A stretch of DNA of 64,000 bases, taken from NCBI GenBank assembly GCA_030141605.1, contig JAQGDQ010000625.1:60780-124779 (forward strand), written 5' to 3'. How positions within the stretch are numbered: the stretch's first letter is position 1; the number at the start of each line of letters is the position of its first letter. The notes beneath the pieces are model-generated. The model was not told where the DNA came from. It did no database searches and saw only the letters and a program-made list of their open reading frames with translations. The DNA is from Tubiluchus corallicola (taxonomy: Eukaryota; Animalia; Priapulida). Both the position numbers and the translations under genes were made by a program. This document shows, piece after piece, positions 6,201 to 52,700 of this stretch.

Positions 6201-9200
6201 TCATCAGCCACCCACTAATTTTCGCCATTTTTTCCTTCCTGTTTTACCACCAATATATGAAGTTATATCATATTTCTTAATGCAGGGATGAGAATGACAA
6301 ATTGCAAAAAACTCTGAAACAGGCCGGGGGTTTTGGGGCCGCAATGGGGTTGAAATTGCAATTTTGTGATAATAGAGAGCCTCTAAGTGGACTTAAAATA
6401 TCAATTACCTTGTTTCATGCATAATTTAAAATACCCAACTATCAAGGATACATGATGCCTAATTGTCTCAAAAACGCCCAAGTACTGGCCGCTCCTATGC
6501 AAAAGTTTATAAAAACTGTCTGCAATTGACTCAAATAACTCCACACAATTGATTCTATATTTTTATACATAGATATACACGTGGTTACTCTGATGTACGT
6601 GATGTAAACAAAGTGACAGCCTGCCAACTAGCGGTCAGCTTGTGAAACAATGTACTGCGTCGGTAAAAATTTTCACAACATATTTACGCGATTTACAAAG
6701 ATGCCACTACTGGTCTTAAAAAAACTCGGAATTCCGCGTATCAGCAGAAAATTCTCATCGCTGATAATGGTTTCTTACACTATGACTGCCTTCACATGAG
6801 AGGTTTTTATTTAGGCTCTTTTTTATAGACCTGCTAGCCAATCAACTAGTACCATTATAAGATTTCACCTGTCCACGTATGTATTGTTCCAATTTTTTGT
6901 GTACCAATAAATACAGTTTAAAAAAAGCGAACAATTAAAAGTAACTTAGCTGTATTTTGTTTAGAGACTTTTTTATTTGACAGACTGCATGCATCCGCAG
7001 GGCTTAGTCAACAAACATTGACGCTTGTAGTAAAAACAGAACCTAACTGATGCAAGGGCAATCCTCTAAGATGAGCAACTGAATTGGCAGAGACACATTA
7101 GAGATATTCGGACGCATGTCTTCACTCCATGAGGTAAACAACCATGATCAGTATGGCAAACAAAATCAACTGGAACAAGTACTGAACATACTGAACCCAG
7201 GTGGTCACAAACCACTCACTGATCAGACACGGGGTTGCTTAACTTCGGTCACGAAAGACACGAGCAAGACCACTCACTCGGCTATTCACCTCAACGATTA
7301 ACTCTCTCGATAAAAACACGTCAATTTCAAACCACGGTGATAATCTAATTCACAAATGAGCTATTGTATTAGTGATTGAAAATCCAGATTTAAAACATGA
7401 CCACGTAAGTCAAGCACAGCCCATGTGCCAACTAAACTTACTTTACTTTTCCTGTCATGTCTAACAGCTTGTCATGTATCACTTTCACCACCTCAAAGCT
7501 CTTGTTGGATGTAATTGAGTAAACTAGAATATAACCGTGAATGTCCATCACGTACGATTGTGGAATGATAGAATATTCATCCTATCAAACAAAAACAATT
7601 ACACATAGAGAGAATCACGGATTTCTGATTCGCAAAATTTTTCAGGTGGTTTCAGTTGGCAACATTGTTTAGCATTTTCACAAATATAGAAAAACTGCTA
7701 CATGTAATGCAATGTGAAGAATTAGCAAGAATAATCAAGCAAGAATTAGAAGAAAGCTTACGTTAGAGCTCATTCTAACACGATGTGATAGCTACTACTT
7801 TAAAAATGGCCAAGACTCTCGTTAAAAATGAGCATAACACAAGTGCGCTTTATTTCACAACTGTTTTCCAATTCTATAAAAACAAATCTTTAGAAGTAGT
7901 CAGGCGTTTGCAGACTCGTCGTAAAACTAGAAAGGCGACTGCTAGCAGTAAAAAACTTGGTAACGAATAAAATGATGAATCAGCACTAATACACCATTAT
8001 GAGCAGACTTTTAAGATAATTTAGTAGGTAGTTTTTTCGATACTGGTTTTTTTTCATCTGATATGATTCCAATATTTAATCTGGGGGAACCGATTCAATG
8101 CAATCCAATTAATATATGTGGCACCAGCAAATTTAAGTGCAAGAGTTATATAAAAGGGAGAGGAAACTTTTTTTTGCAAGTAGGCCTGACCTTGAATTAC
8201 ATTTATGATGGTGTATATTACAGTATGCATATGCCTATTTGTGATGATCTTAAATTCAGTTACATTTATGATGGTGTATATTACGTATGCATATGCCCAT
8301 TTGTGATGATCTTAAATTCAGTTACATTTATGATGGTGTATATTACAGTATGCATATGCCTATTTGTGTTGATCTTAAATTCAGTTACATTTATGATGGT
8401 GTATATTACAGTATGCATATGCCTATTTGTGATGATCTTAAATTCAGTTACATTTATGATGGTGTATATTACAGTATGCATATGCCCATTTGTGATGATC
8501 TTAAATTCAGTTACATTTATGATGGTGTATATTACAGTATGCATATGCCCATTTGTGATGATCTTAAATTCAGTTACATTTATGATGGTGTATATTACAG
8601 TATGCATATGCCCATTTGTGATGATCTTAAATTCAGTTACATTTATGATGGTGTATATTACAGTATGCATATGCCCATTTGTGATGATCTTAAATTCAGT
8701 TACATTTATGATGGTGTATATTACAGTATGCATGTGCCCATTTGTGATGATCTTAAATTCAGTTACATTTATGATGGTGTATATTACAGTATGCATATGC
8801 CTATTTGTGTTGATCTTAAATTCAGTTATTTTTTATGATGGTGTATATTACAGTATGCATATGCCTATTTGTGATGATCTTAAATTCAGTTACATTTATG
8901 ATGGTGTATATTACAGTATGCATATGCCCATTTGTGATGATCTTAAATTCAGTTACATTTATGATGGTGTATATTACAGTATGCATATGCCCATTTGTGA
9001 TGATCTTAAATTCAGTTACATTTATGATGGTGTATATTACAGTATGCATATGCCTATTTGTGTTGATCTTAAATTCAGTTATTTTTTATGATGGTGTATA
9101 TTACAGTATGCATATGCAAAAAGCTATTTAAAAAATTATATTTAACTAAAATAAAATGAAATTTGGTAGGTTAACACTGAGATTAAAACTTCATTAAACT

Positions 9201-13165: not shown

Positions 13166-13371
13166 AACGAAAGACAGCAATATTAACTTGATGTTACATG
13201 AATAAATTAAGTAGTAGCCTATAGTCAAACTTTATAAAAATGGACTATTAACAAAAAGTAGCACAAACACAAACTCTTCGATAACACGGTATGAAAAGTT
13301 GATGCGCATGCGCTGCCTTTCAGCAATAGCAGGCGTCTTTGTTTCGCTAACACATGTTACTTGAAACGAAA
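13166..13371. promoter_or_regulatory. compact bidirectional promoter/5' UTR region of Rheb and NIT2 with NRF1-type palindrome
   Basis: Divergent ATGs at 13165 (-) and 13372 (+); TGCGCATGCGC at 13303-13313. Confidence 0.7.
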
Positions 13372-16300
13372 ATGGCAGCTTCCAGTGAGTTTTGTTTTGA
13401 CTGTGCTGCGTTTTAGACTTAAAAGCAATATTTGTTGTAATAATCACAAGTTGTCTTTAAATTACTTTGTCTGAAAAAAGTTGTGCCATTTTCAATAAAA
13501 TTTTATTATAAAATTGCTAAGTTTTTGGCAAGTTGGTTGTAAAATATAATATTGTACAAAAATAATTATTTTCACCAATGTTTTTTCTTACAATCAGTAT
13601 CGTCTATGTGGTGCACTAAGGCGTCAGTGCATATCACATGTAGTTGCTTACTGTGGCCGAAATAAAGTGTATCATCAGGCTTAGAGCCCTGGCCTGTATA
13701 AGCATTCTGTAATTTCTCAACCGGATGAAGAATAGCAATGATGAGCCACATATTCAGGATAAAAATGAATATGCTTGACGTATTAATGTGCAGTCTTAAA
13801 AATGAAAATTATAAATATTTTGATATAATACTTATTATAATCTTAAAGCATTTCTGCGTGTGTTTATTGTAGCATTTCGTCTGGCTTTGATTCAAATGGC
13901 TGTCGGTGCAAATAAGGCAGAGAATGTCAAGCGAGCCGTTGAATTTGTTCAAGAAGCTGCAAAGCAGAAAGCACAGATGGTTGTCTTGCCAGTAAGTAAG
14001 CTAAGTTCTTCATGCTTGTGACTTGCTCTTGTGTATCAAGTAGTACAGTACTTTTAATACGTTGGTAATAAAGAATTTTAAGCATATTTGGTTTTCATTT
14101 TGATAAGATATTTCAAACAATGTTCACATATTAGACATTCATTATTGGTCATTAAGTGAGCAGTAGAAAGCTTTCAAATGCAAAAGAAAATTCCAATTTT
14201 TCAAGCAAATAGTATTAATTAGTGCTTTCTAACTGAACGAGTGAAACTTTTTAAAACTGTATGTTTAGCAAATAATAAAATTTCAGGTTTTACTACTAAT
14301 TACATTTTTTGAACCATTACAAATTTATGAACTTAGACAGACTTGGAGAGCTTTATTTATAATGTTTCAGCATACCATAGTATCAGTGAGTAACTTTTTA
14401 GCTTGTCTGATGTTAATTCTAGGAAACATTTAACTGTCCTTATGGTGTACAGTACTTCAAACAATATTCGGAAAAGATTCCAGGCAAAACAAGCGACGAT
14501 CTTTCGCAAGTGGCAAGCAACAGTAAAATTTTCCTGTTAGGAGGTAGCAAATGCATAATGAAATCTTCCACCGTACACTTTTGATTCATGAGACATTAAT
14601 TTCTCATACTGTCTGCCGATACACTTTTTATAGCTAAAATATAAAAAAAAACTGTGTCCGTAGCGTCAAAAAATGCTTTTCTTGGTGTGCATCTTCTTCT
14701 TCTTTTATACATGTTAATTATAGCAAACTTAGCAGTATAAAATAGATTATACTATAAATTTGGCTTGTACAGCTTCTATTTGTACTTCTAATGTCTCATG
14801 TTTAAAAGTGTCTGGTGAGCTTCATATTTTAAGCCCAAGTCTGTAACTCACAATGGGGAGCATCACTTTTTTTTAGAGACTAGACTACCAGAAAAAATCA
14901 CCTTAAGGCTGAGGCCTCGCAGGTTTTTAGTGACAGCCCGACAAATTTTTTACACACATGGGATTACCTCATACAGTTACAAAGTACAATAGCATTTATT
15001 GCTGCCAGGGTGCTAGTTTTGTTGCCAATTTTCCCGATTTGATTGATCATTTTATTCACCTTACAAAACAACCAAATTTATCGGAAAAATCGATAGCACT
15101 AGTGAGGACCATTGAGGTGCCCAGGATGTCCGGTTTCATGACTACAAGGAAATTGTGGGTTTTGATGAAACTTCTTAGTTGCAGATTTGGACTTTAAAAT
15201 TAGTGAATAGACTGCAAATAGTGCAATTACAAGTTTCATTGTTGTGCCTGATCAACTTGCTGGCCATTGAGAAGTTTCACTTTCATATTCATTAATTTTG
15301 TTACAATGAGTATTTGCAGGTAAAAACAGTCAACCGATCTATTAAGAGGGGTTCTTAAGCTTTGTAATGATCACATTTTTGCATCAAGATCATTTTTGAG
15401 TTTTATGCATTTTGAGCAATACAAGTGTGTAATTGCACTACTTACAGTTGTACTCGACTGCCATCTAGGGGTGAGTTAGAAAAACAATGCAAGTGTGTAA
15501 TTGCACAACTTGCAGTCGTACTCGACTGCCATCTAGGGGTGAGTTAAAAAAGAATGCAAGTATGTAATTGTACTACTTGCAGTCGTGCTCGACTGCCATC
15601 TAGGGGCGAGTTATCAAAACAATGCAAGTGTGTAATTGCACTACTTGCAGTCGTACTCGACTGCCATCTAGGGGCGAGTTAGAAAAACAATGCAAGTGTG
15701 TAATTGCACTACTTGCAGTCGCGTGCACTGATACATCCACTATTTCATGTTTTGGACCCATCTTATTCAGCTGCCACTTGTTTTAGTCCCTTCGGTATCT
15801 TACTTCTAATGCTTCGTCATTTGGCTAATAGAGAGTAAGCAAAGTTTTTGAAATTCGAACCTTGGCCTTTGCTTATTCGATGTTTGTGTTACAGGAGTGC
15901 TTCAATGGCCCTCTTGGCACGCAACATTTCCTTAACTATGCCGAGACATTTCCCGGTCAAACCACGACCGCCCTTTCGGTGGCTGCAAAAGAGAACAATG
16001 TTTACTTAGTGGGAGGTACTTCTCATTTTTCGCATCTCTTGGTTTAATATTGTAGTTGCGTTACATCGACAATGTTTGATGCATTTAGAAATAATCTATT
16101 AATAATTATAATAATAATAATAATAATATTTATTTAAAGTCAGCTTTTGGGTCAACAATTAACATTAGCTCAAAGAGCTATTATCGCCGACTGTAAATAA
16201 CAACCTACAACTACATAACAGAGACTGTATTACCCCATTTTTACCCTAAATACCACGCGTCAGGCAGGGCAACAGCAGGTACCATTTTTAAAGTCTTTGG

Positions 16301-17796
16301 TATGACCCGGCCGCTGGTTCGAACTCACGACCTCCCAGACGGAAAGCAGACACATTACCACTAGACTAGACCATCTGGTTAAAAACATTAACAGTTAAAA
16401 CATTTTGTAAATGCTCTGTGAGAATAAATAATAAGAAACATTTTGTAAATGCTCTGTGAGAATAAATAATTGTACAGGATTTGCTTAAAGATAAGGACAA
16501 GTCACCTAGCATGTTGGGTTCATTCTACACTTTGTAATTGCCGTGAGTTTAGTATGCTGCCCAGAAGATGGCGCTAGGATATAATTTTTCTAAATTTTAA
16601 CTGTGTGCACACAAATTTTAAAAATCTGCCTATAGAGCACAGAATTATATAAGCTTAAGCTTATCACACTTTTATTACTAAATCTATATACCATTTTTTG
16701 AAAGATTGAAATAAACCTGACTTTCCAGAAGGTGGGCCTTTCCTTTAAAATTAATCCTTTCAGTCCCAAATTATTTTTTTAATAATAAAAATTTTTTTGG
16801 CTTGGTGCTTTTGTTCAGTATGTCCATCTTGTTTACACATAATAATTATTTTTTTCTACCTGTGCCCGCGTGCTAAATATAACCTGTATCCCACGGGATA
16901 CATTGGGATTCAATGGAAGCATAAAATGTGCTTCATTTTGCAACTGCTGATAATTTTTTAAAGTATTTAAGACATTTAGTATGCACGCTATGCTGATCTG
17001 TACAAAGTCGTCTCTAAAGTACTGCACCTTGCACAGTTTTTAATTTATGTAGATTTTCTAGTTTGCCATTTTATCACCATTTTTAGTCTATTGTTATTGG
17101 CTTAAATCAAAATAACTATTAACAGGTCAAATAACTGTCAGTTTTAAAATTTTATTAATTTTAAAGGCAGAAAATATTCTCGTATCCCACGGGATACAAC
17201 AGGTATGAAAGGGTTAAGATTCTATAATAATTGTTTGTAATAACTAAAATTTTTCTGTCCTTTGACTTCATAATTCGTTTTCATAATAATGCGTAATGAC
17301 TGAGAATTACTAAACCTCACGAACGTTAATGGGTATCAATCGGTGTGCGATATGGCAATTCTTGGTTACATTTTAGTAGAAATGGTTTTATTTGCATTCT
17401 TGTAATAATTTATGTTAGGTTAGCTATATGATTGTGATCATGAATCCTCGTTAAAGATAAATCAGTTACTGTTTGCGCTCTTGGGTTTTTGAAATCTGGG
17501 TGTTTTAAAAGTTCATATTAATGTATTTGTCGTTGTAATCAGACCAGATGGTTTAGTCTAGTGGTAATGCGTCTGCTTTCCGTCTGGGAGGTCGTGAGTT
17601 CGAACCAGCGGCCGGGTCATACCAAAGACTTTAACAATGGTACCTGCTGTTGCCCTGCCTGACGCATGGTATTTAGGGTAAAAGTGGGGTAATAATAGTC
17701 TCTGTTATGTAGTTGTAGGTTGTTATTTACAGACGGCGATAATAACTCTTTGAGCTAATGTTAATTGTTGATGCAAAAGTCGACTTTAAATAAATA

Positions 17797-17844
<48 letters not shown>

Positions 17845-20800
17845 TGAACTTCTTGTGTTTTTGTACAATTATAGTTAAATACATGTAGACTGTTGTAGCC
17901 ACCGAATTATTTGAGTGTTTTAAACCAGGTTATTGGTAATTATAGTTTACCTAAAATCGTCAACGTCTGTGTAACGAGGCAACTTGGTTTTTTTGCAGGT
18001 TCAATACCTGAAGAAGATGGTGGAAAATATTACAACACCTGCGCTGTTTTTAATCCTAGCGGTAAAATGGTGGCAAAGCATCGAAAGGTTTGTATTTCCT
18101 TGAGGCAAGTTTCACGGCTGAGTGAACAGGCATGCGTGTGGCTGTGACACCTCTGCTGGTTCAGTGATTCATCTTAGACCTAGTGGCATATTCTTGGTAT
18201 TGAGCATGCTCTGGTCGCGCTGCAAACATCTTAATGAGTGGGCGCTGCCTTTGAGCGCAAGATTCTGGTGCGCAATGAGCCGAAGAAAAAATGGCGACGA
18301 ATAAAAAACCCATAAATGTCTACTAATTCGTAATTTAAATGATCGAAGAAACAAAGATGAGAAAATACAAGTTTTAAAAACCATCGTGCCTGAAAATAAG
18401 GTGTCCGGGGGATGATATTCAACGTTCTCTGCTATTTTAGAGCTCGTAGTAGAACAAGGTCATCTGAGGTTATTTAAGTCGAAGTTGGAGGCCATTTGAA
18501 GTTTGTAGCAACTGTTTTTAGCTGCCAAAAAGGCAAACCAAACTGCATGTGCTAAATTTAGTTATTTTTATGTAAGGTAGACATTGAAATTTATGGCTTT
18601 TTTCAGTAGCACATGACGATTATTATTCCTTACCTTGTGAACATTATATAGTTATAGAAATTGTACATGGCATAAAATAGTTGTATTTTACTTTACAAAA
18701 TTTAAACAAAAAAACCGGTTAATTTATGACAGATTTGTGGCAATTTATACTTTATCATGAACAGAGATTTGGAATAGTTTAATTTAACGATATGTTATTT
18801 ATATTCTGCAGTGCATGAATATTTTTTGTCCAGAAACTATATGCAGTATGCTAAGCAAATCAGTGGAGTATGGTACGGATCCATGTAACATGGTACGCCA
18901 CGGCCTTTATTTTAATTTCAGGCGCACCTGTTTGACATTGATGTGCCTGGAGGAATTCGCTTCCAGGAATCAGAAGTATTGACAAGAGGAGACAGTCTGA
19001 CTGTGTTTGATACCCGTACGTAACAATATTCCTTATTGGATATTTAGGTAAAAACACTGAGAACTTGTTAATTACTTGGCCGTATTAAAAATTATTTTAT
19101 CTGACTAGTTTGCTGATGTCAAAACAAATATTATTTCTATTTACTGTAAGAATTTGATGTTGCTTTTTTGTTTATTCTTTTAGCATTTTGTAAGGTTGGT
19201 GTCGGAATATGTTACGATATTCGGTTTAGTGATATGGCTCAGATATACGCTGATAACGGTACGTTTATTTCTTATTGACATACTAATAATAATTTAAGTC
19301 AGGGGTGTGCAAATTGCAGCCCGCAGGCCACTTGCGGCCCGCCGGGAGATCTTGTGCGGCCCGCGAAGATGTTTGTCAACATAATGAAAGTGCGGCCCGG
19401 GCGATCCAGCTGAAGTCCGTGCCACGATCCCAAAGCTAGTACGGGTAGTTTTTTCTACTAGATCGGATGCCATTAACCCTTACAAGACAGTTGTAGCTTA
19501 ATGTCACTGTACTACACAGACTGTGTGATACACATTACTAATATGCATTGTAATGAAATTACCAATATCTGTCCTGAAAGTAGAAATATATAGTTTGTAA
19601 TATAAATTTTAATAACTTCTAAAATGTTTCTTGAGTGTAGTAGTAGTGATGTACGCAGGTCGGATGCAAAAAAAATCGTTATTAGGCCTTTCTGTACTTC
19701 GTTCCTTGATCAAACTGCCTGTGGCTCACAGGAATTGCGGGAAAGTTTAATGTGGCCCGGGTAATCAGATAATTTGCACGCCCCTGATTTAGATCGAGGA
19801 TACTGGGTGTTGTAGTACGTATAGCACGAGTAACTATAGTCAGTAAGCTACTTGCTACTTTTGTGCTTGGAATTTTTGTAGGTTTTATTGACTTTGGCAA
19901 TAATAGTTTTACTCTTGTTTTATTTTTCTATGTTTTGTACTCTAAGCAAAACCAATAGCTGAAATTTTGTCAAGGAATATCATCGAGGTAGCTACTAGAC
20001 AGTTGTTCACTCAGGAGTCGGTATGAACGTACGCAGAATTCTACATCTAATTTTTGGTAACAATTCATGTATTTCTGTATCGTTATTTAGGATGTAAATT
20101 ACTTGTCTACCCCGGTGCCTTCAATATGACGACGGGTCCTGTTCACTGGGAGCTACTGAATAGATGTCGAGCGCTAGACAATCAGGTTTATTGTTGCAGT
20201 GTTTCTCCGTCCCGTGATGAATCAGCGACATACGTTGCATGGGGTCATACCATGGCTGTGAATCCATGGGGTAAAGTGTTGTGTGAAGCCCAAGAAAAGG
20301 AAGAGATGCTGTTTGTTGACATAGGTAAGCTGTCATCCGAAATTTTTATCTGTGCAGGGTTCAGCGAGTAACAAATTTATGCTTGTTTATTTGTGCATAA
20401 CTTGTTTATGTGATTCAGTAGATCAGGGGTGTGCAAATTATCTGACTAGCCGGGCCACATTAAACTTTCCCGCAATTCCTGCGGATTCAGTGTAAAGATT
20501 CAGATTCTTTCTAGTTGTTCTTTGCATTAGATTGTTAAACAGCTTTACAATTTTTGCATAACTGTTTTTCACTTAAAAACTACATTGATAACTATATATC
20601 ATTATTAACGTAAAAAGTCATTAAGTACATTTTTTAGTATTACATCACTTTTTTAAACTTCTTTACAGAAATTTTTCCTTCAACTAGGGAATTTAACTGA
20701 TTGCTACATATTTTCTTTTAATACTGTTTTGATTACGAAAGCATTAGCTGCACAATAATTTTTCACAAATTGATTGAATTAGACATATACATTTTATTTT

Positions 20801-21764
20801 TCTCCAAATGTGTCGCAAATTTCCATTTTACGAAAAAAATAACTTTGTCTGTGGAGATGGGGCGAGGAAAGACCATAGGTCATCTAGTCACTCACCCCTT
20901 ATAATTTAATATTGATGGCAGAAAACAGAATTGATGACACAGGATGCAAATAAACTAATCAAAATAAAGCAATAACAAAAGCAAAATTATAAAAACAAAC
21001 ATGACAACAATTGCATAAATGAAAAGAAAGAATAATAATAAATGAAGATGATGAATAAGTATCACAATGATTAGTTACGAATTAAATAAAATGATAATAA
21101 TGTACAGTTGTTTACAAGACAAAACAATGTGAATATGATTATATAACAGAAAAAACGTAAAAGCAAAGCAGAGCAGGTAATTTATGTCACCGTTCAAAAT
21201 TAATCGTTAATTGGGTATAGTGCATACACAAAAAATGTGTTTTAGCAGTTTTTTTTTATAAAATAATTTTTAAAAACAAACAGTGGTATCTGCTTATGCA
21301 CAGGGAACAAGGAATTGAGTAATCAAACAACAGGGAGCGATTTAGTGCGCAAACGATCATTAAAGTTTTCATTTAATTACTCCCTCAAGTTAGTGACAGT
21401 GTTATCGCAGATTAACATTCTGTTGAAAAACACTAAGAAAGTGTGCAATAAAACCAACATTTTTTAAAAAAAACTTTCAGATTTAAAAATTCTTCTTCGG
21501 TGGCTCTTTGGATCATACCTCACCTGGTTTACGTCGCTAACGTAATCTAGATCGTCAAGTCAGACGTTTTTTCATTTTTAAAAAATTATTTGCTTTTACT
21601 ATGGAGTTTTTTAGTAGTAGCTAGACCTAGTGGTTATAGATATATTTTTGTATCTAACATTCTATGTTTCAGATTTAGAGTATCTAAATCAAGTGCGACA
21701 GTCTGTCCCTTTAACGTTACAACGCAGGACAGACTTGTACAATCGGCCAACAGCAAAGAAGTAA
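13372..21764 (+). CDS. NIT2: omega-amidase NIT2 (nitrilase superfamily), 278 aa with either exon 3 copy
   Basis: Exons 13372-13384, 13873-13991 ([11 protein letters not shown]...MVVLP), 14423-14543 or 15895-16015, 17999-18087 ([13 protein letters not shown]...KHRK), 18922-19015 ([17 protein letters not shown]), 19184-19258 (GICYDIRF), 20091-20324 ([14 protein letters not shown]...YVAWGH), 21673-21764 (QRRTDLY...TAA). Glu-Lys-Cys triad motifs present; the 837-nt total is in frame. Confidence 0.96.
14423..14543 (+). CDS. NIT2: NIT2 exon 3 copy A (121 bp, phase 0/1)
   Basis: ttctag|[40 protein letters not shown](G)|gtagca; no stop. Confidence 0.9.
15418..15721. repeat. 68-bp tandem repeat (~4.5 copies) between NIT2 exons 3A and 3B
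   Basis: Unit AATGCAAGTGTGTAATTGCACTACTTGCAGTCGTACTCGACTGCCATCTAGGGGYGAGTTAGAAAAAC starting at 15418, 15486, 15553, 15621, 15689. Confidence 0.93.
15895..16015 (+). CDS. NIT2: NIT2 exon 3 copy B (121 bp, phase 0/1)
   Basis: ttacag|[40 protein letters not shown](G)|gtactt; no stop. Confidence 0.9.
16109..16379 (-). mobile_element. tRNA-derived SINE, family S copy
   Basis: Reverse complement of the 17543 copy: A/B-box head, CATACCAAAGACTTTAAAAATGGTACC core, (ATT)n tail. Confidence 0.9.
16755..17213. mobile_element. piggyBac-type MITE
   Basis: TTAA flanks at 16751-16754 and 17214-17217; ends (T/C)CCTTTCA...TGAAAGGG; internal palindrome GTATCCCACGGGATAC twice; partial second copy at ~42569-42650. 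Confidence 0.8.
17543..17842 (+). mobile_element. tRNA-derived SINE, family S copy (core resembles the Meta/MESC domain, recalled rather than verified)
   Basis: Pol III A box (TAGTCTAGTGG) and B box (GAGTTCGAACC), conserved body, (ATT)n tail; 4 copies in window. Confidence 0.9.
19300..19786 (+). mobile_element. hAT MITE family A copy
   Basis: CAGGGGTGTGCAAATT...AATTTGCACGCCCCTG; flanks ATTTAAGT/ATTTAGAT. Confidence 0.9.
20424..20484 (-). mobile_element. hAT MITE family A terminal fragment
   Basis: 61 bp matching the right end of family A in reverse orientation. Confidence 0.85.
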
Positions 21765-24368: not shown

Positions 24369-26607
24369 TATATATTTGTGAAAGTCATGTTTGAAGTTGT
24401 TGTTCACCCACTTTGTTATGATTGAGTTTAGGCACAGAAGTATGAACAAGAATAAAAAACTATACTACATGTTTGCACTGCACACAACAGAAAAGTGTTT
24501 ATTAAAACTACAGACACATGAGTAGCATGACTGCTGCACTGCACTGAGAGTCACTAGAAAGCAAAAGCAGTCAGTATATATAGGTATAGGACTTGACCTA
24601 TGCAGATTTGCACAGGCTTCACAACAACCATTACTTTTAAATAGGGAGAGAACCGGTGAATATGCATTCAATGGACCGTACAATTATACTGAGCGTAAGT
24701 CAGCTGGTAGAATGTAACAGGATTAGCCCATAGATGGCAGCACCTAATTAAATGTACAATTCCAGCTTCCACAATATTGAATTCTGTGATATATAAATCT
24801 TGAACCTTCACTGCCAAATGAATTAACTGTGTAAATAAGTACATTCAACTAATTCATTTCTGAATTGATACACTGACCATTCTGCAACAGCTAATACTGA
24901 GTGACATTGCTGCATTGTCAAAGGTCTGGCCGATTACTCTACTGCACTTTCACACTGCTGTTATTATCAGATAATTCAGCTCGGTAAATCAGAAAGTCCA
25001 GCGCGCCATTTCCATGATCAGCTTTCAGAGAAATCAATCGGCTGAATTGTTTGTGTGAGAAGCTGGAGGCAAATCATTGCCCCTTGCAGTGTTTGATGTC
25101 GAAGATCACTTATTGATTACGAAATGTGATAGATTGATAATGAATACGGCATGACTTTGTGGTGCACCCAGTTAAGCAATGCTAGATCTAAAGAGCATAT
25201 GGAGCTGGAGTCCATTATTTGCTTAACAGCTCGTTTGCATGTTAATATATTTTCTTGATTTAAACTAGCTAAATTTTGAACTGACGCTTTTTAAACTAAG
25301 TGAATTTCTTAACTAAGTTTTGTCACTGGTTTTTGTTTCCTTTTGAGCAGTTCTAGTATCATCTTAATAGATATTTCTCAAAATTATTGGACTGTTTTTG
25401 CAAAAAATAAAAATAAAAACATAGGAAATGCAAATAATTATACTGCCGTTACCCGGAGTATATTTCCGTGCCAAATTCTTTGGTGGAAAGTTTGTTAAAG
25501 CATTTTTGTACACGAAAATTTTCCAAAACATCACTTTGAAGTGAACATATCGAAGATTTGATGCATGCAAATATTTTGTACAAACTCACTTTGTCTTTCA
25601 ACTTCAAATTCTCACAAATTTATAGATTCCTTGAATGGCTGGCATTCTCAGTATATCGATTAAACAGAGTGCTTTTGCATAATTCATAATCCATTAGTTG
25701 CTTCTAGCTAAGTGTGAAATTTCCAAATTTTGTCATTTAAAACCTTTATAAGTGGTGGAACAACTCTTGGTCAGAAAGGGAAGTAAAACGGTACTGCTGA
25801 AACCTGTTGTATTGTTGCTTTCACTTGCTATTTCTAGATTCGCTTAATCAGATGGTTGACAGTTAGCCTAGGCTAAGTTTCTTTGCTTTGCCAATCTTAG
25901 ACTTTGCGCATGCGTGCAATGCCAGTGACTGAATTAATAAAGTGGGTTAATAAGGAAGCCACCTAAACTCTGCGGTGAATCAACTACACATGCACTATAT
26001 GGCTTCACTCTTCCGTGAAGGCATTAGCTGCCAGACATCGTCAATCAATTTTTAATTAGCCATAAAGTCGGTGTCAAAACAACTTGCGTGCTGAGTTACG
26101 TTTGCGCATGAAAAACCGCGTAGAAGCAAAGTTTTTGTGTTTGCAAACTTGGTTAATCCACGGGTGCTTAGCTAAAACTGCAAACAGCTTAGTGGCGAGG
26201 AAGCACGTGGGAGAATTCTGATACTCTTCTGAAGGTGATGAATGGAAAGTAACTGTGAAACTGTTAGTTTACGAATGGCTGTGCTAAAGCTGAGATATTA
26301 CATAGAAATGTAACCAAAAACTTGTATTCACAATTTTGCTGGGAACAAGTTTTGCCTTTGTGTAAAAGACTCAATGATCCAGCGTGAAATGAGCCAAGTG
26401 AAATGCGGTTCTTCAAAAACAAGCTTATAGAAGTCAAATTGGTGGTGGCAAAAATTCAAGAGCATCAAAATGCTGCGTAGGAAACACTCCTCTGAATCAA
26501 AGTGAGAAAGAAGATTGGTGATAATGCGACATCAGATTCAGACACTGTTAAGATGATACAATGATTTTTGAATTTTTTGTGGGACAATGAATATGGTCCA
26601 CTAAGCA

Positions 26608-27588
26608 ATGGCCACTACTACAAATTTAAAACTATACATGTTAATGCTTGATGTGTCTTACGTGAGCATTTCTTCGTTAATTCTGTTGTTTAACTTCGTG
26701 GTCCTGGGAATATTTTCTAGTCAGTGTCGCAAGCTGCCTACGTACAACTGGTACATGTTGTCATCATGCGTGTCAGATATCCTTTTAGCACTGGTGGTGC
26801 CAATGATCTCGGTGTGTTTCCCGGCTTTTCGTATAGATCCGGTCAAGTATGCACCAAGCGAGGAAGGTGATGGTGACACGGCATTGTGTGTTAAGGTCAA
26901 ACTAGGACATTGCGTTATGTACATGTCCATGTTCAATAGCATCTATACAATATTTGCCATACTAGTAGACAGAAGACGAAGGACGATTTTTCCTATGAAG
27001 TCCCAAACAACGCAGAAACAAGGTTTTATCATTTCTATAATTATCTGGTGTCTTTCTCTCATTTATCAAGTGCCGTCTTTTATAATTGAGTACAAAACCA
27101 GAATTGTACAAATGGAGACGCCTAGCGGAAACTTTACTGGAATGGTTTGCCATCCTGCTGGTTCTGCCTTGCAAATGTATTCTGTTCTGTCTGTTCTGCT
27201 TTCATATATTCTTCCAATTGTAATAATAGGTATTTTTTACAATCAAGTTTTAGTACATCTTAGATATGTTACCGTGGTAACAGATGAAAATCGCAAAGAA
27301 ATAAGAAGAATCGGTCGCTCAGTGCAAATGATTCTAGTCCTTACTTTAGCTTACGCCATCTGCTGGGCAATTAAACATGCAGCAATATTTGACCTGGCCT
27401 TTAGGCCTGCAGTACACCCACCACCTGTAATGTCATTTAATGAACTTTTGTTCCTAGAGATGTCCCCACTGTTGCCTTTGTGCTACAGCTGGATCAAACC
27501 CATCATATATATTGTTTACGAACCAGCATGTTTTAAAATTTTCAAAATCTTAAATCGCAAGAAGTCTGTAAATGTGCAGACAATTTAG
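26608..27588 (+). CDS. intronless, divergent rhodopsin-like (class A) 7TM GPCR, orphan, peptide-receptor-like
   Basis: 326-aa ORF with seven hydrophobic segments; TM2 SD, TM3 Cys and AILVDRR, TM4 W...P, ECL2 Cys, TM5 YILP...FY, TM6 CW, TM7 KPIIY. Confidence 0.88.
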   Translation: MATTTNLKLYMLMLDVSYVSISSLILLFNFVVLGIFSSQCRKLPTYNWYMLSSCVSDILLALVVPMISVCFPAFRIDPVKYAPSEEGDGDTALCVKVKLGHCVMYMSMFNSIYTIFAILVDRRRRTIFPMKSQTTQKQGFIISIIIWCLSLIYQVPSFIIEYKTRIVQMETPSGNFTGMVCHPAGSALQMYSVLSVLLSYILPIVIIGIFYNQVLVHLRYVTVVTDENRKEIRRIGRSVQMILVLTLAYAICWAIKHAAIFDLAFRPAVHPPPVMSFNELLFLEMSPLLPLCYSWIKPIIYIVYEPACFKIFKILNRKKSVNVQTI

Positions 27589-34540: not shown

Positions 34541-37500
34541 TCATAAGATCACGCAGCAGCGGCAATATCGTTGTTGTGTTCTTCCGACAGAGGGTGGTGG
34601 TGTCACTGGGGCAAAGTAAGCATGCACGTTAATGTCCTCCAGGTGGAGCTGAAAATAAGAGAGAAGCTGTGAAACGCATGCAACAGAAGAAACCACAAGC
34701 AAAATGGCTGTCTTCACGAGCTACTATTGAAGTTTGATAGCAAGAATTTTTCACAATTGCAATACTAAATTTTAGACAGAGAAACAGGGAAAGGGTTATA
34801 AAATTAACTTTTCATATTTCTAAAACAATTTTCTGGAGATTTGATGCTAGACTACGAAAGTCCAATATATTTAGCATTTGTTTTTGTAAAAAACAAAAAA
34901 CTGATGTTTGGCCCTACTTTTGATGCATCATAAGAGTTTCAACTGTGTAAACATATGAATGGTTTTGGCTTGCAAGCACACAGTTATGAAAAATACTGTA
35001 TTGTTGTATATTAATACTATATTATGAATAATATAGTAAGTAACAACGTCTGCAAAATTTTTGTAATATACATCAAGAAAAGTCTATTTTAACTAACAAT
35101 TAAAGTGAATCAATGAGAATTATGAAAACTGCAAGCTCAAGTGATAGATGGCACCACTTACCCTGAGCCTGCGTATACCGGCACGCGTGATTAGCTGGCA
35201 GTCGTACAGCTCTATACGCTCCAGTTTCTGACAGTGTACCAAGTGGTCAAGGGCGGTATCAGTGATCAGCGGACAATTGTCCAGTTCAAGTACAGTGAGA
35301 TGTTCCGTGGCGAATACGCTATTACCCAAGTGTCGAATACCTTCATCTGTGATCAGTTCACAGTGTGACAAACTCTGCAAGTATGGAAATTACTGAATGG
35401 AAACTCAAGGTCTTTTTTTTACACTTAAACACAAACAAGGGGGAAGGTACACATGCAGTAGTCAACAGTAGCAAACTGATTGACATACTAGCGTATTTAG
35501 GTACGAAATATTCAAAATATTTTATAAAAACACGAAAAGGTGAAAAATGCTGACGGTGACACGAATGCAAAAGATGACGGGATGGATGACGGTGACACTA
35601 ATGCAAAAGATGGAAGACGGGATGGATGACGGTGACACTAATGCAAAAGATGGAAGACGGGATGGATGACGGTGAGCAAGATAACTGAAACGAACGCTAC
35701 TGTTGGCCGAGTAGATTAGAAAATCCTGTGCAAGACTTGTTAGTGGCAATGATTTACAATCCCGGTTACCAGAGTTTGTGGAAGGCTATAAAGACGGACT
35801 GTAAAGCACAATCGTCACTGATTTAATAATGATCACTGAAAAAACAGCTATGGCACAAACTGTACATATGCCAAGTCTGCATGCACATCATAATCCAATG
35901 GCCCTTACATATGGAATTCAATTGCTCCAGCTATTAAAAATGCCAACTCGCTGTCCATATTTAAAAAAAATTATAAATTAAACTTACTTGAAACATATAA
36001 CTGATCACTCAATCATGATTTGTTGTTTTTCATATAATATTTTTATTACTTCCCACCCGTATTTATGTCTGTATATATTGTAATATTGTATCTGTATATA
36101 TTGTAATTTTTTCGTAACTAATTCTAGTGGCCTATCATAAGCTAGCTTCTTAGGTCTCTAGCGCAGAATTCATGAATTGTATCATATTTTTGTATTAACA
36201 AAAACTGATTATCGATGCACATGTAATGTATATGTATATGTTTATTGCGAAATAATCCATAATTGTAAAAGTTCCACAGTTTTAGGAACTACTTCTAGAT
36301 TCTCTGGCAAGAAAAGGAACTAATTCTAGTTCCAAGTTCGTTTAACTTTTTAGAAAAAGATTCAATTTGAGTTCCAAGTTCTTTGCACCAAAGGAAACAT
36401 GTCACTTCCTGTTCACTGCAGTATTTTCATCCCTGTATGTTTAAACTTAAACTTTTTCCTTTATTTTTATTTTAATTTTACTAATTTTTCTTGGAATTTT
36501 TTTTATTTTTTAACTGTTTTAAATCATCATTTTTAGTATTAGTTTTATGTATTTTTCTCTGTACACCATTTTTATTTATATAGATTTTGGCCTATGTAAA
36601 AATAAATGTAAACTTAATCGTGCATGATTATCAGCAGAACAACAGATTAATTTTATTGACATGGCACATGAATAGGGGTGCATGAGGATCTGGTCGGAAT
36701 CAGCATTTCAAGGTCGGGGTTTGGGATGCCAATTGAGTTCGATGTCGGAAATTTTTTGGGGTTCGTGACTGAATGTTCGGGAGCGTGGTTTGGGGTCAAA
36801 CTTCGGGAGTAAGGATCATAATGACCATGATCGTCAACACCCCTACATATGAATCTCAACTTTTCTCTGCTCAATCAGTTTATATGGCAAGAGAGTTTCG
36901 TAGTCTGTTATGATCTGTGAGATGATGTGCAGTAACAAAAAAATCTAATTTCTTACCAATTTTTCTAGCTGCGGGCACCATAGTGAGAGATGTGCAAGAG
37001 TAGCATCGGTAATAAGAACACATTCTTCTAGATCCATTCTTCTCAACTCATGACAGTTCTGCAACAAAAATTAGTTTACAATCTAGTACTTTAAACTTCA
37101 CCAAATTAACTTCAGAACTATTAACACTAGAAGGACCGGGCGCGTCAATTAACAGTCAACATTAGAAGGACCAGGCGCGTCAATTAACACAGTCAACATT
37201 AGAAAGACTGGGTGCGTCAATTAACACAGTCAACATTAGAAGGACCGGGCGCGTCAATTGACACAGTCAACATTAGAAGGACCGGGCGCGTCAATTGACA
37301 CAGTCAACATTAGAAGGACCGGGCGCGTCAATTAACACACTTCACATTAAAAGGACCGGGCGCGTCAATTAACACACTTCACATTAAAAGGACCGGGCGC
37401 GTCAATTAACACACTTCACATTAAAAGGACCGGGCGCGTCAATTAACACAGTCAACATTAAAAGGACCAGGCGCGTCAATTAACACTGTCAACATTAGAA

Positions 37501-40500
37501 GGACCAGGCGCGTCAATTAACACAGTCAACATTAGAAGGACCGGGTGCTTCAATTAACACTGTCAACATTAGAAGGACCAGGCGCGTCAATTAACACAAT
37601 TAATGCCAGAAGGACCGGGCGTGTCAATTAATGCAATTAACATTAGAAGGATCGGGTGCGTCAATTAACACAGTCAACATTAAAAGGACCAGGCGCGTCA
37701 ATTCACACAGTCAACATTAGAAGGACCGGGCGCGTCAATTAACACTGTCAGCATTAGAAGGACCAGGCACGTCAATTAACACAGTCAACATTAGAAGGAC
37801 CAGATGCGTCAATTAACACTGTCAACATTAGAAGGACCAGGTGCGTCAATTAACACAGTCAACATTAGAAGGACCAGATGCGCCAATTAACACTGTCAGC
37901 ATTAGAAGGACCAGGTGCGTCAATTAAGACAGTCAGCATTAGAAGGACCAGGTGCGTCAATTAACACAGTCAACATTAGAAGGACCAGATGCGTCAATTA
38001 ACACAGTCAACATTAGAAGGACCAGATGCGTTAATTAACACTGTCAATATTAGAAGGACCGGGCGCGGCAATTAACACTGTCAACATTAGAAGGACCAGG
38101 CGCGTCAATTAACACTGTCAACATTAGAAGGACCAGATGCGTCAATTAACACTGTCAGCATTAGAAGGACCGGGCACGTCAATTAACACTGTCAGCATTA
38201 GAAGGACCAGATGCGTCAATTAACACTGTCAGCATTAGAAGGACCGGGTGCTTCAATTAACACTGTCAACATTAGAAGGACCGGGTGCTTCAATTAACAC
38301 AATTAGCACTAGAAGGATTGGGTGCGTCAATTAACACTGTCAGCATTAGAAGGACCAGATGCGTCAATTAACACACTTCACATTAAAAGGACCGGGCGCG
38401 TCAATTGACACAGTCAACATTAGAAGGACCGGGCGCGTCAATTAACACACTTCACATTAAAAGGACCGGGCGCGTCAATTAACACACTTCACATTAAAAG
38501 GACCGGGCGCGTCAATTAACACACTTCACATTAGAAGGACCAGGCGCGTCAATTAACACAGTCAACATTAGAAGGACCAGGCGCGTCAATTAACACACTT
38601 CACATTAAAAGGACCAGGTGCGTCAATTAACACAGTCAACATTAGAAGGACCAGGTGCGTCAATTAACACAGTCAACATTAGAAGGACCGGGTGCTTCAA
38701 TTAACACAGTCAACATTAGAAGGACCAGGTGCGTCAATTAACACAGTCAACATTAGAAGGACTGGGTGCTTCAATTAACACGGTCAACATTAGAAGGACA
38801 AGGTGCGTCAATTAACACTGTCAACATCAGAAGGACCGGGTGCGTCAATTAACACTGTCAACATTAGAAGGACCAGGCGCGTCAATTAACACAGTCAACA
38901 TTAGAAGGACCGGGTGCTTCAATTAACACTGTCAACATTAGAAGGACCAGGCGCGTCAATTAACACAATTAACGCCAGAAGGACCGGGCGTGTCAATTAA
39001 TGCAATTAACATTAGAAGGATCGGGTGCGTCAATTAACACAGTCAACATTAAAAGGACCAGGCGCGTCAATTCACACAGTCAACATTAGAAGGACCGGGC
39101 GCGTCAATTAACACTGTCAGCATTAGAAGGACCAGGCACGTCAATTAACACTGTCAACATTAGAAGGACCAGATGCGTCAATTAACACTGTCAACATTAG
39201 AAGGACCAGGTGCGTCAATTAACACAGTCAACATTAGAAGGACCAGATGCGCCAATTAACACTGTCAGCATTAGAAGGACCAGGTGCGTCAATTAACACA
39301 GTCAGCATTAGAAGGACCAGGTGCGTCAATTAACACAGTCAACATTAGAAGGACCAGATGCGTCAATTAACACAGTCAACATTAGAAGGACCAGATGCGT
39401 TAATTAACACTGTCAACATTAGAAGGACCGGGCGCGGCAATTAACACTGTCAACATTAGAAGGACCAGGCGCGTCAATTAACACAGTCAACATTAGAAGG
39501 ACCAGATGCGTCAATTAACACTGTCAGCATTAGAAGGACCGGGCACGTCAATTAACACTGTCAGCATTAGAAGGACCAGATGTGTCAATTAACACTGTCA
39601 GCATTAGAAGGACCGGGTGCTTCAATTAACACTGTCAACATTAGAAGGACTGGGTGCTTCAATTAACACAATTAGCACTAGAAGGATTGGGCGCGTCAAT
39701 TAACACTGTCAGCATTAGAAGGACCAGATGCGTCAATTAACACTGACAGCATTAGAAGGACCGGGTGAGTCAATTAACACAGCCAACATTAGAAGGACCG
39801 GGTGCTTCAATTAACACAATTAGCACTAGAAGGATTGGGCGCGTCAATTAACGCAATTAACATTAGAAGGACCAGGTGAGTCAATTAACACAATTGACAC
39901 AAAGCGAAGAGCTACACTTGAAAAATAATACATTGGATTTAATGGCGCATTCATACTAGCGAGCTTTCTGTCACGAGCTTTCTCTCTGACAGCAAATTCA
40001 CAAGTGTGAACTGCTTTGCGTGGTACTGTCGGTAAGAAATTGCAAACTCTCTAACAGTTGCTGCAAGTTGATTTATTGTCTAGTGTGAACGCCTTCTCGC
40101 AGTAAATAACCAACTCACGCTTACTGCCGGAAAGCAACTGGCAGCAAGTCTTGCTCTCTAGTCTGAACACGCTTGTGTGTTATTTGGCAATTTTACTTGG
40201 CGAAAAAACTCGCTAGTTTGAACTAATAAGCTAGCAAGTTCTTCTTTTTATGAATGAATTCCAAAAAGAGACAATCTGTGTTTCAGTGCAATGTGAAACG
40301 CTAGCTAATTGTTGCCACTAAGCTATGCTCAGATGTCATGTAACATCAACAAACCAAATTTGACGGTTCTAACGTATTTAGAGGAGGGAGGGTCAAAGCT
40401 GCTGCTCTTAAATAGCTACATGCACATATTTGTACCAGACGGCTTAGTCTAGTGGTAATGCGTCTGCTTTCCGTCTGGGAGGTCGTGAGTTCGAACCAGC

Positions 40501-49700: not shown

Positions 49701-52700
49701 AGCGTCTGCTGGAGAAGTATGAAAATGATCCTCGTGAAATGGAAATTCACGATATGTGAATAACAAGAAAAACTTAATTGCCGATTCATGGACGATTTGC
49801 TATGCAAGAACTTGTATATTACATCAAAGTTTTGTTCAAAAATTGCAAATTTATAAAGTCTTCAAAATCTGGTGTAGAAACCTCATACGCACAGCCTGCA
49901 ATTTTGAGTGGTATAATTGCAGCAGTGACTAAAACAGCTTTTTGAAATTTGCAGTATAACATAAATTGCTATAATTCCTTGTCACGGCCACACCGCACTG
50001 TCTAAACAGGGAAATAGTTGAACAATTCTTATTGAAAAGACTTACATTACATCGAAAACATGTTTCAAAATTTTAATTAGTTGACAACTTAGTTCTTAAT
50101 TATATCATAACTGTTTGTCAATAATAGGACCCTTCTACAATTGTCCGATTATTCACATTTATGAATGCAAACACTAACGGAAACTTAGAGTGGTCATTGC
50201 AAATAATTTATTGTTAAAAATGACATTAGAATCATCGAACTCTGCATGTGGAGGAGCTGATCTAACATTTGACTTTAAGACATTCTCTCACTTTCAACAA
50301 AACATGAACACAACACAGCCTATTTGTGAAGCCACTCCCTATGTATTTTAAAAGCTAAAATGCATTGTATATTTGTAAGTACAGCACTCTAGACAGAACA
50401 CGCCAGACTGAGCAGCAGCAGGACCAGAATCTAGAACAAAAAGATACTGAAGTAGCTCAATTATTATACAATTTCTAGGTCACGACAGGACCTTTTCATA
50501 GACTGTGACAAAACTTACAATAGCCTGTTATATAACGCATAATTTTTGCCACGTAATTGTTACATAATGAATTTTGTAATTTGTTACACAATGTAGTATT
50601 TCTGTTATCTTCATAATGCAGCACTGTTACATAATGGGCCTCAACAACATATCAGTTATCATACACTTGTACTGACTGCCACACGAGTTTTGTTACTGAT
50701 GGCACGTCTGTTGTTACACAGTTGCGAAAATACTATTTAAAAGTTGATAAAAAAATCAATATTTTATCAAAATAGCATCAGTAATTTACTCACTTTGGAT
50801 ACCTGTGCGCTCCGACATAAGCTGATTACGTCCAAGAAAGAGAACACCCTAAAAACACAAAAGTCACATTTATTAAAGCTATACCAGCTATTACTGGATC
50901 AGAAATAGTTTTGCAGGTGGCGACACCAGTAACATAAACATTTAGCAATAGCGTACAGCGCATAAGTGACATTCAAGTACCTTAGTAGCAACTCCTTGGG
51001 TAGTTTCTTATTTATCAGCGCCGAATCATCATCGGAAGTGATGCGTGATATCTAAAAAGTAGCAAGTTGTTTTCATTATGGTCAAATCATGCGTTTTTAT
51101 TTGTTTCTATAGAGCAGAGGTGTGCAAATTGCGGCCCGCCAAGAGAATTTGTAGGGCTCTCAAAGACATTTGTCAACCTAATGAAAGTGCGGCCCGGGCG
51201 ATTAATTGAGTGTATCCAGCTGAAGTCCGTGCCACGATCCCAAAGATGGTGCGGGTAGTTTTTTCTACTAGATCGGATACAAGACGGTTGTAGCTTAATG
51301 TCACTGTACTACACAGACTGTGTGATACACATTACTAATATGCATTGTAATGAAATTACCACTATCTGTCCTGAAAGTAGAAATATATGGTTTGTAATAT
51401 AAAATTTAATAACTTCTAAAATAGTTTCTTGAGTGTAGTAGTAATGATGTACGCAGGTCGGATGCAAAAAAATCATTATTAGGTCCTACTGTACTTGGCT
51501 CCTTGATCAAACTGCCTGTGGCCCGCAGGAATTGCGGGAATGTTTAATGTGGCCCGGCTAGTCAGATAATTTGCACACCCGTGCTATAGAGAATAAATAT
51601 TTGACATCAAATATACACTAAAATGCAAATTTAATTCTGAACGACAAGAATAATGGTAAATTCTAATAAAAAATTCTTAAAAAAGAAACACTTTTATTTA
51701 ATTGTGAGATTTTTTTAATAATTAAGACACTTAAATATTCTTCTTCCCAGCTTTTCCCTATTCGGGGTCGCCGTTGTGAATGAGTCTTCTCCACGCATTC
51801 CTCTTGTTGACCATCTCTTCATTCATGTCTTCCCTTCCCACATGATCTTCACCGACTCTTCTTTTCAGGTGTCCATAACATCGCAATCTTGCGAGGCTTC
51901 CACTACTTTTACTGTTCCTCTGATATTATTATTTCTAATTTTATCTCTTCTTGTTATTCCCACCATCCATCTCAACATCCTCATCTCCACCACACCCATT
52001 TTCTTCTCTTCGGTCTTCTTTAGAGAAGCTGCTTCCAGCCCATAGATTAGAGCGGATCTGACCACTTCTTTGTGGACTTTGCCTTTAAGTCTCACCGACT
52101 CATTTATTAAGATATGTAAATAAAGTTAAAAATTTCTGAATGTGTCAAGCTAAATGCACCAAAAGTAGAAAAAAATTCAAAATAAAAAATGAAATAATTT
52201 CAAACAAAAAAGATGCGATCTAATCTTATTCAAATAGAATATCTGTGAGTCTAACCTAGCCACTGGGGGGGGGGGGGAGCCAGCCCAACTCAGTGCCGGT
52301 CCCAAGCCCGGATAAATAGGGAGGGTTAGGGTCAGGAAGAGCATCCGCCTGTAAAAACTGCGCCAAAACCATTGAATGAGTCGGTAGACTAGATAGCCGT
52401 ATAATAAAGCCGACAACTTTTAGATACAATCTTTGCTAAAAACCAGACGAACTGTACACAAAATTTACCCAAAACGCAATGTCAGCAAAAGGTTACCATA
52501 AGTTACTACATATTAAGACGTACCAAACTTGTAAATTTTATTTAGGTTTTAGTGCTGTATTGCTCTGGATTGCGTACGTATTTGACCTCCCAACGTTAGT
52601 TTTTATTTACACAGTGAAAGTTCACAACCTGGTAACATGAGTTTACACCTGTCAGAAATTTGGCACAGACACTGAACAAAGAACCACAGCATACAGGAAT

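Follow-up and report, generated by a model that had tools for sequence, protein, structure and literature searches.

The NIT2 gene and its doubled third exon

The window, meaning the whole 64,000-nt stretch of DNA that was analysed, contains a single NIT2 (omega-amidase) gene on the + strand (13372-21764), with eight coding exon positions and GT-AG introns (Table 1). By its fold, its catalytic triad and its closeness to Nit2, the gene is a member of the NIT2/omega-amidase family, with a predicted hydrolytic activity on alpha-ketoglutaramate or alpha-ketosuccinamate. It matches the nitrilase domain PF00795, and both isoforms obtained by joining the exons carry the triad E45, K114 and C155, corresponding to E43, K112 and C153 of human NIT2 (numbering of PMC12864753). 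Exon 7 is nearer to mouse Nit2 (2w1v, E 1e-31) than to NitFhit (1ems, E 1e-14); among the best 120 of 1,984 matches to this exon, the named rows were mostly omega-amidase NIT2 and the closest identity was 77%. Exons 4-8 share on average ~65% identity with animal NIT2.

Table 1. Coding exons of NIT2 and the intron between the two copies of exon 3; positions are those of the window.
Feature	Positions	Strand	Basis
Exon 1, coding part (ATG, 13 nt)	13372..13384	+	predicted from sequence: open frame with exon 2
Exon 2, phase 0 end immediately 5' of the catalytic Glu	13873..13991	+	exon joining; tblastn/profile search
Exon 3 copy A: catalytic Glu, Thr for Cys44, Cys at 47, Tyr49 retained; donor GAG/GTAGCA (slash marks the splice site)	14423..14543	+	
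Intron separating exon 3 copies A and B: 1,351 nt; 68-nt tandem array at 15417-15721	14544..15894	+	
Exon 3 copy B: catalytic Glu, Cys44 retained, Gly at 47, Leu for Tyr49; donor GAG/GTACTT	15895..16015	+	
Exon 4, terminal residue is the catalytic Lys (isoform K114)	17999..18087	+	exon joining; tblastn/profile search
Exon 5	18922..19015	+	exon joining; tblastn/profile search
Exon 6: catalytic Cys (isoform C155) and Cys146 equivalent (C148)	19184..19258	+	exon joining; spliced to exon 7 in one X2 contig
Exon 7	20091..20324	+	exon joining; domain and homologue matches
Exon 8, coding part, through TAA	21673..21764	+	exon joining; tblastn/profile search

Exon 3 is present in two copies, A and B. 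Both are 121 nt long, free of stops and bounded by intact AG/GT ends, starting in phase 0 and ending in phase 1. They are identical at 17/40 amino acids and 65/121 nt, third codon positions being alike at 13/40, and their alignment score of 93 compares with at most 29 in 100,000 shuffles. The coordinates, 121-bp lengths, AG/GT sites, phases, lack of stops and translations given in an initial annotation of this DNA were re-checked on the sequence and were all correct, and recomputation returned the same amino-acid identity. Each copy matches residues 43-82 of mouse Nit2 (2w1v; E 2e-9 for A, 1e-9 for B) and begins, as had been annotated, with the catalytic Glu, aligned to the Glu43 equivalent. 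The exon-3 boundaries are those found in many animal genes. When all 382 windows on the + strand with the form AG-121 nt-GT/GC were scored as exon 3, only A and B stood out (BLOSUM scores 211 and 214; next best -4). The claim that every other NIT2 exon occurs once agrees with tblastn and with a profile search of the 2,989 six-frame stretches of the window, which located two instances of exon 3 and a single one of each of exons 2 and 4-8; exon 1, with 13 nt, is too short for such a search.

It is highly improbable that the second copy is an assembly artefact in which two haplotypes or two loci were merged, even if no one contig spans both copies. We compared the contigs of two runs, X1 and X2, over positions 13300-20450, and found that they differ from the window by only ~3-6% in exons. 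The copies themselves differ at 56/121 nt, and an alignment of the 150 nt flanking each of them scores no higher than shuffles do, which excludes merged haplotypes. Moreover, exon 3 is the only exon found doubled in the window, and one X1 contig (15813-16048) carries copy B together with the sequence on either side; over its 236 letters it shows 7 substitutions and 8 gap letters. X1 extends over exon 4 as well as B, and A is not covered; since X1 also misses exons 1, 6 and 7, the missing cover of A says nothing. None of the X1 and X2 contigs over the compared interval crosses any exon-3 junction, and the only exon joint in X2 is that of exon 6 to exon 7, in one contig. No RNA data containing the NIT2 locus were listed for an 8.6-kb query, a length that hides small RNAs.

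The two copies obey a frame rule. Joining A alone or B alone yields an open frame of 837 nt, encoding 278 amino acids. When both copies are joined, a stop arises at codon 98, inside B and 575 nt before the last junction; when neither is joined, the frame is closed within exon 5 by a stop at codon 94, the last junction lying 345 nt further on. Stops that far upstream of the last junction are expected by the usual rule to trigger nonsense-mediated decay. The initial annotation had concluded that exactly one copy must be chosen: the frame joins bear this out for a full-length protein and do not show that both copies are ever chosen. Two neighbouring homologous exons that agree in length and phase, have intact splice sites and follow this frame rule present the anatomy of tandem-duplicated mutually exclusive exons, from which we infer their mutually exclusive use. 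Lengths not divisible by three are the commonest arrangement in the human catalogue of mutually exclusive exons, being reported for 377/629 clusters in the available text (PMC5740500).

Several other features lie in the window. An intronless, stop-free stretch of 327 codons (26605-27585, + strand), 4.8 kb downstream of NIT2, encodes a rhodopsin-family GPCR (PF00001, E 2e-18); a language-model search with this protein pointed to no taxon. A 490-nt repeat within an intron (19300-19794) has other copies near 3809, 43881, 48325, 51129 and 53845 (84-90% alike) and is probably a small transposon. Long minisatellite arrays occupy 1-1596 (38-nt unit), 8197-9117 (63) and 37123-39892 (37). Leucine-rich repeat matches at 35123-35389 on the - strand probably mark an exon of another gene, and weak domain matches were found at 51868-52125 (3-beta HSD) and 58533-58739 (KIAA2026 helical). 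Rfam and tRNA scans of the window gave no matches.

Age, selection and distribution of the exon pair

Synonymous sites are saturated between the copies (pS 0.86, against a pN of 0.36), which sets a lower bound of ~1.7 on dS. For comparison with other NIT2 proteins we used an alignment of 120 homologues (matches of 230-360 amino acids from a set of 132, rich in fish and molluscs). Of the 20 exon-3 columns more than 80% conserved in it, A retains 15 and B 17. Neutral drift was simulated in 20,000 copies each, counting those that both stayed intact and kept the observed conservation. At 0.85 substitutions/site, 0/20,000 simulated copies did so for either exon; at 0.3 substitutions/site, 0.6% (A) and 0.09% (B) still looked as observed, and at 0.1, 34% and 22%. 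The saturated synonymous sites, the unrelated flanks and these simulations together indicate that purifying selection acted on both copies during the greater part of their history. Judged by these sequence comparisons, the duplication is old and neither copy has drifted neutrally since it occurred, which supports the long purifying selection on both copies that had been proposed at the outset. Of the residues of the two copies, 10/80 are unseen in the 120 homologues, against 1/224 in the constitutive exons compared (p 9e-6), indicating that both diverged faster after the duplication.

The simulated numbers would also fit a recent silencing of one copy. Accordingly worded, the alternative is that both copies were long used, that one of them has fallen out of use recently, leaving a silent or seldom spliced remnant, and that a single enzyme is made; we consider this improbable, while giving it real weight. 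Drift of 0.05-0.2 substitutions/site is compatible with either copy and above all with A, which resembles the homologues less than B does (48% mean identity, and 57% for B); on the exon-3 profile, both copies score below all but 3/120 homologues. The exon-3 junctions of neither copy are seen in the X1 and X2 contigs, and a break in B in that sample could be among the 8 gap letters of the X1 contig that carries this copy. However, each copy retains both of its splice sites, its length and its frame, when only 40-47% of copies stay intact after 0.1 and 19-24% after 0.2 substitutions/site, indels excluded, and most of A's departures from the consensus are residues present in other homologues. Moreover, the full consensus motif is found in neither copy, so that the survivor would be an unusual NIT2 anyway.

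We searched for the exon pair in relatives by several routes. A profile search returned 321 matches; none of the best 150 carried the pair, and the top identity to either copy among them was 27/40. The highest-ranking match with two matching stretches (P0135) proved to contain a near-exact internal repeat of its whole N-terminus and was thus discarded as an exon pair. Word searches with A alone and B alone found no match, which is weak evidence. In 10 groups of annotated NIT2 entries from the same species or genus (starfish, snail, nemertean, lancelets, acorn worm, clam, pike, sea anemone), none differed by an exon-3 swap, and the alignment of 120 homologues contained no two sequences that agreed completely outside exon 3 yet diverged inside it. 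Four metagenome loci carrying the NIT2 of other eukaryotes have one exon-3 segment each, one of these contigs ending ~380 nt after the segment. A tree of 44 rows, with its forks left open, gave the animal no definite place. The duplication looks lineage-specific in the sequences searched, though annotation can miss such exons.

Residues exchanged beside the catalytic glutamate

Fifteen exon-3 columns are at least 95% conserved in the 120 homologues, and each copy departs from them at exactly one, the column being different in A and B. The sole departure of A is Cys44 to Thr (codon ACA) and that of B is Tyr49 to Leu (codon CTT), in mouse numbering, each requiring at least two nucleotide substitutions; the loss of the conserved Tyr in B had already been noted in the initial annotation and is seen again in this alignment. 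The usual Ser47 is absent from both copies, being Cys in A and Gly in B. The departure rate at near-invariant columns, 1/15 per copy, is no higher than the 4/81 of the constitutive exons, which speaks against a faster divergence of the copies. Extending the comparison to 235 distinct homologous segments showed Thr at position 44 in 1/235 and Leu at position 49 in 0/235, while Val, Ile, Met, Phe or Tyr stand at the Cys44 position in 12/235.

The lone Thr44 segment clusters with P0289, a full-length, divergent NIT2-like protein of the Megaselia abdita NIT2.2 family that shares Thr44 and Cys47 with exon A, apparently by convergence. To judge from its sequence, P0289 also differs in other conserved motifs and may not be an omega-amidase. 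Two further NIT2-like proteins, P0013 and P0046 (~61% identical over exons 4-8), have a strongly remodelled exon-3 loop and both lack Cys44 and Tyr49; they could be either paralogues or products of another exon swap, whose partner was not found. The loop remodelled in these three divergent NIT2-like proteins is the same one as here.

In human NIT2, the substrate channel contains Cys44, which is reported as the main H2O2-sensitive cysteine, and the C44S mutant shows a pronounced loss of activity, with most of it gone (PMC12864753). In Medicago CPA, according to the available text, the Tyr located six positions beyond the catalytic Glu, Tyr54, contributes to the wall of the pocket (PMC4812014); the corresponding Tyr49 is listed among the conserved active-site residues of H. 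pylori CNH (PMC12961655), and Y54 of a bacterial nitrilase holds the bound intermediate (PMC7616060). The roles of Cys44 and Tyr49 in the present gene are predicted from these proteins, by transfer through alignment position. On this basis, the Tyr loss in B fits an altered pocket shape, and exon choice would likely switch redox control or pocket shape. The initial annotation named only loop differences and the Tyr loss, and the state of A without Cys44 was absent from it. Since A lacks the residue that is H2O2-sensitive in human NIT2, redox control is at least as good a candidate as the substrate preference suggested there.

By analogy to the human enzyme, isoform B, which keeps Cys44, would stay inhibitable by peroxide and have its pocket wall altered by the change of Tyr49 to Leu, and isoform A, with its Tyr and without Cys44, would escape the peroxide switch or carry one at a new place (Cys47). 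Exon choice would then set how the production of alpha-ketoglutarate from glutamine responds to oxidative stress. That splicing of exon 3 toggles a peroxide switch of omega-amidase, with B inhibited by H2O2 and A active under oxidative stress, is a tentative proposal that we hold to be possible and rather unlikely: human C44S is mostly inactive, so Thr44 may make A weak, not peroxide-resistant.

A related alternative is that both exons are spliced and that one isoform is nearly inactive on ketoglutaramate, turning NIT2 down, or acts on another amide, so that the pair works as an on/off switch. The activity loss of human C44S (PMC12864753) speaks for it, as do the absence of Leu at the Tyr position from all 235 homologous segments and the remodelling of this loop in P0013, P0046 and P0289. 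Yet each copy retains the catalytic Glu and 14/15 near-invariant positions, and the 12/235 segments with Val, Ile, Met, Phe or Tyr show that other residues are natural at the Cys44 position; we therefore judge such a switch unlikely.

All together, we favour, with a probability of roughly 0.6, the reading that an old and intact pair of third exons is likely spliced singly and gives rise to two 278-residue enzymes with a predicted pocket difference beside the catalytic Glu.

Presumed choice between the copies and comparison with known exon pairs

If the copies are spliced singly, double or empty messages would be removed by their frameshift and nonsense-mediated decay. Steric hindrance through a distant branch point, as in OGDH, requires the branch point of the second exon to lie within ~50 nt of the donor of the first; the intron between A and B measures 1,351 nt and is free of AG over only 48 nt ahead of B, and this mechanism was rejected. 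Incompatibility of U2 and U12 sites was likewise rejected, 0/8 donors having the form of the U12 donor consensus against which they were scored. Because neither mechanism fits, the choice of copy would probably be set by splicing factors.

Competing RNA pairing of the Dscam type, between docking site and selector, was assessed for 10 pairs of regions. For one of them, made up of the region before B and the beginning of intron 2, the energy was -29.8 kcal/mol, a borderline value when compared with 20 shuffles (mean -23.1, best -28.8), and there was no matching site for A. Both exon-3 donors lack a G at +5, which the other six donors have. Both carry AG at -2/-1, which usually compensates for a missing +5 G, and the absence of this base was thus not counted as a splicing signal. 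The intron after exon 3B holds two copies of a 290-nt repeat in opposite orientation (16090-16379 and 17543-17834, 94% alike), which, if paired, would loop out most of the intron. Further copies lie near 40434 and 52919; as the repeat is dispersed, with copies elsewhere in the window, this long inverted repeat was rejected as a specific splicing element.

A full-text literature search, judged from listings and with most subscription papers outside its reach, showed no description of mutually exclusive or duplicated exons in NIT2, omega-amidase, nitrilase or CG8132 (which we take to be the fly gene name for NIT2), and the initial annotation had known of none either. NIT2 was also absent from the supplements of a human tandem-exon catalogue (PMC8373072) and of the human catalogue of mutually exclusive exons (PMC5740500), in both of which control genes were found and the long files are possibly incomplete. 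The NIT2 pair, seen in one genome, is thus apparently undescribed. As a splicing device it is ordinary, active-site tandem exon pairs being a known class, that of tandem exon duplication substitutions (PMC8373072; PMC9741552, in the parts available).

If both exons are used, the gene would provide two natural enzymes identical outside 23 residues, with and without Cys44, one of them lacking the pocket Tyr, and the roles of both residues would become directly testable. A human study named Cys44 as the redox switch of NIT2, a clean test being blocked by the near-inactive C44S (PMC12864753, available text). If the redox-switch reading is true, the exon pair would constitute a natural experiment separating the redox from the catalytic roles of Cys44, and a PKM-like, splicing-controlled redox switch at the point where glutamine carbon enters the TCA cycle.

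The mechanism proposed for NIT2 would be most like those of PKM1/PKM2 and OGDH 4a/4b. Exons 9 and 10 of PKM, which give PKM1 and PKM2, likewise belong to a metabolic enzyme and are homologous, mutually exclusive and of a length (167 nt) not divisible by three, and only one copy encodes an H2O2-sensitive cysteine, Cys424 in PKM2, which is Leu in PKM1 (bioRxiv 10.1101/2020.05.14.097139, available text). In PKM, however, this cysteine sits at the interface of the tetramer, and the existence of both isoforms is proven, whereas the NIT2 cysteine adjoins the catalytic Glu and the use of two exons is deduced from their anatomy. Exons 4a and 4b of OGDH also form a tandem pair, which switches the Ca2+ sensitivity of an alpha-ketoglutarate enzyme; exclusion there relies on distant branch points near the upstream donor (PMC7969005, available text), in contrast to the 1,351-nt intron and 48 AG-free nt of NIT2. 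As in the exon pair of KHK, each copy carries a catalytic residue beside the active site (Arg108 in KHK; PMC9741552), yet KHK has another fold, is a vertebrate gene and has documented isoforms. The best structural relative remains mammalian NIT2 (mouse 2w1v; human Q9NQR4), with the same Glu-Lys-Cys triad; mouse Nit2 unites Cys44 and Tyr49 in one sequence, whereas here the two residues are split between A and B.
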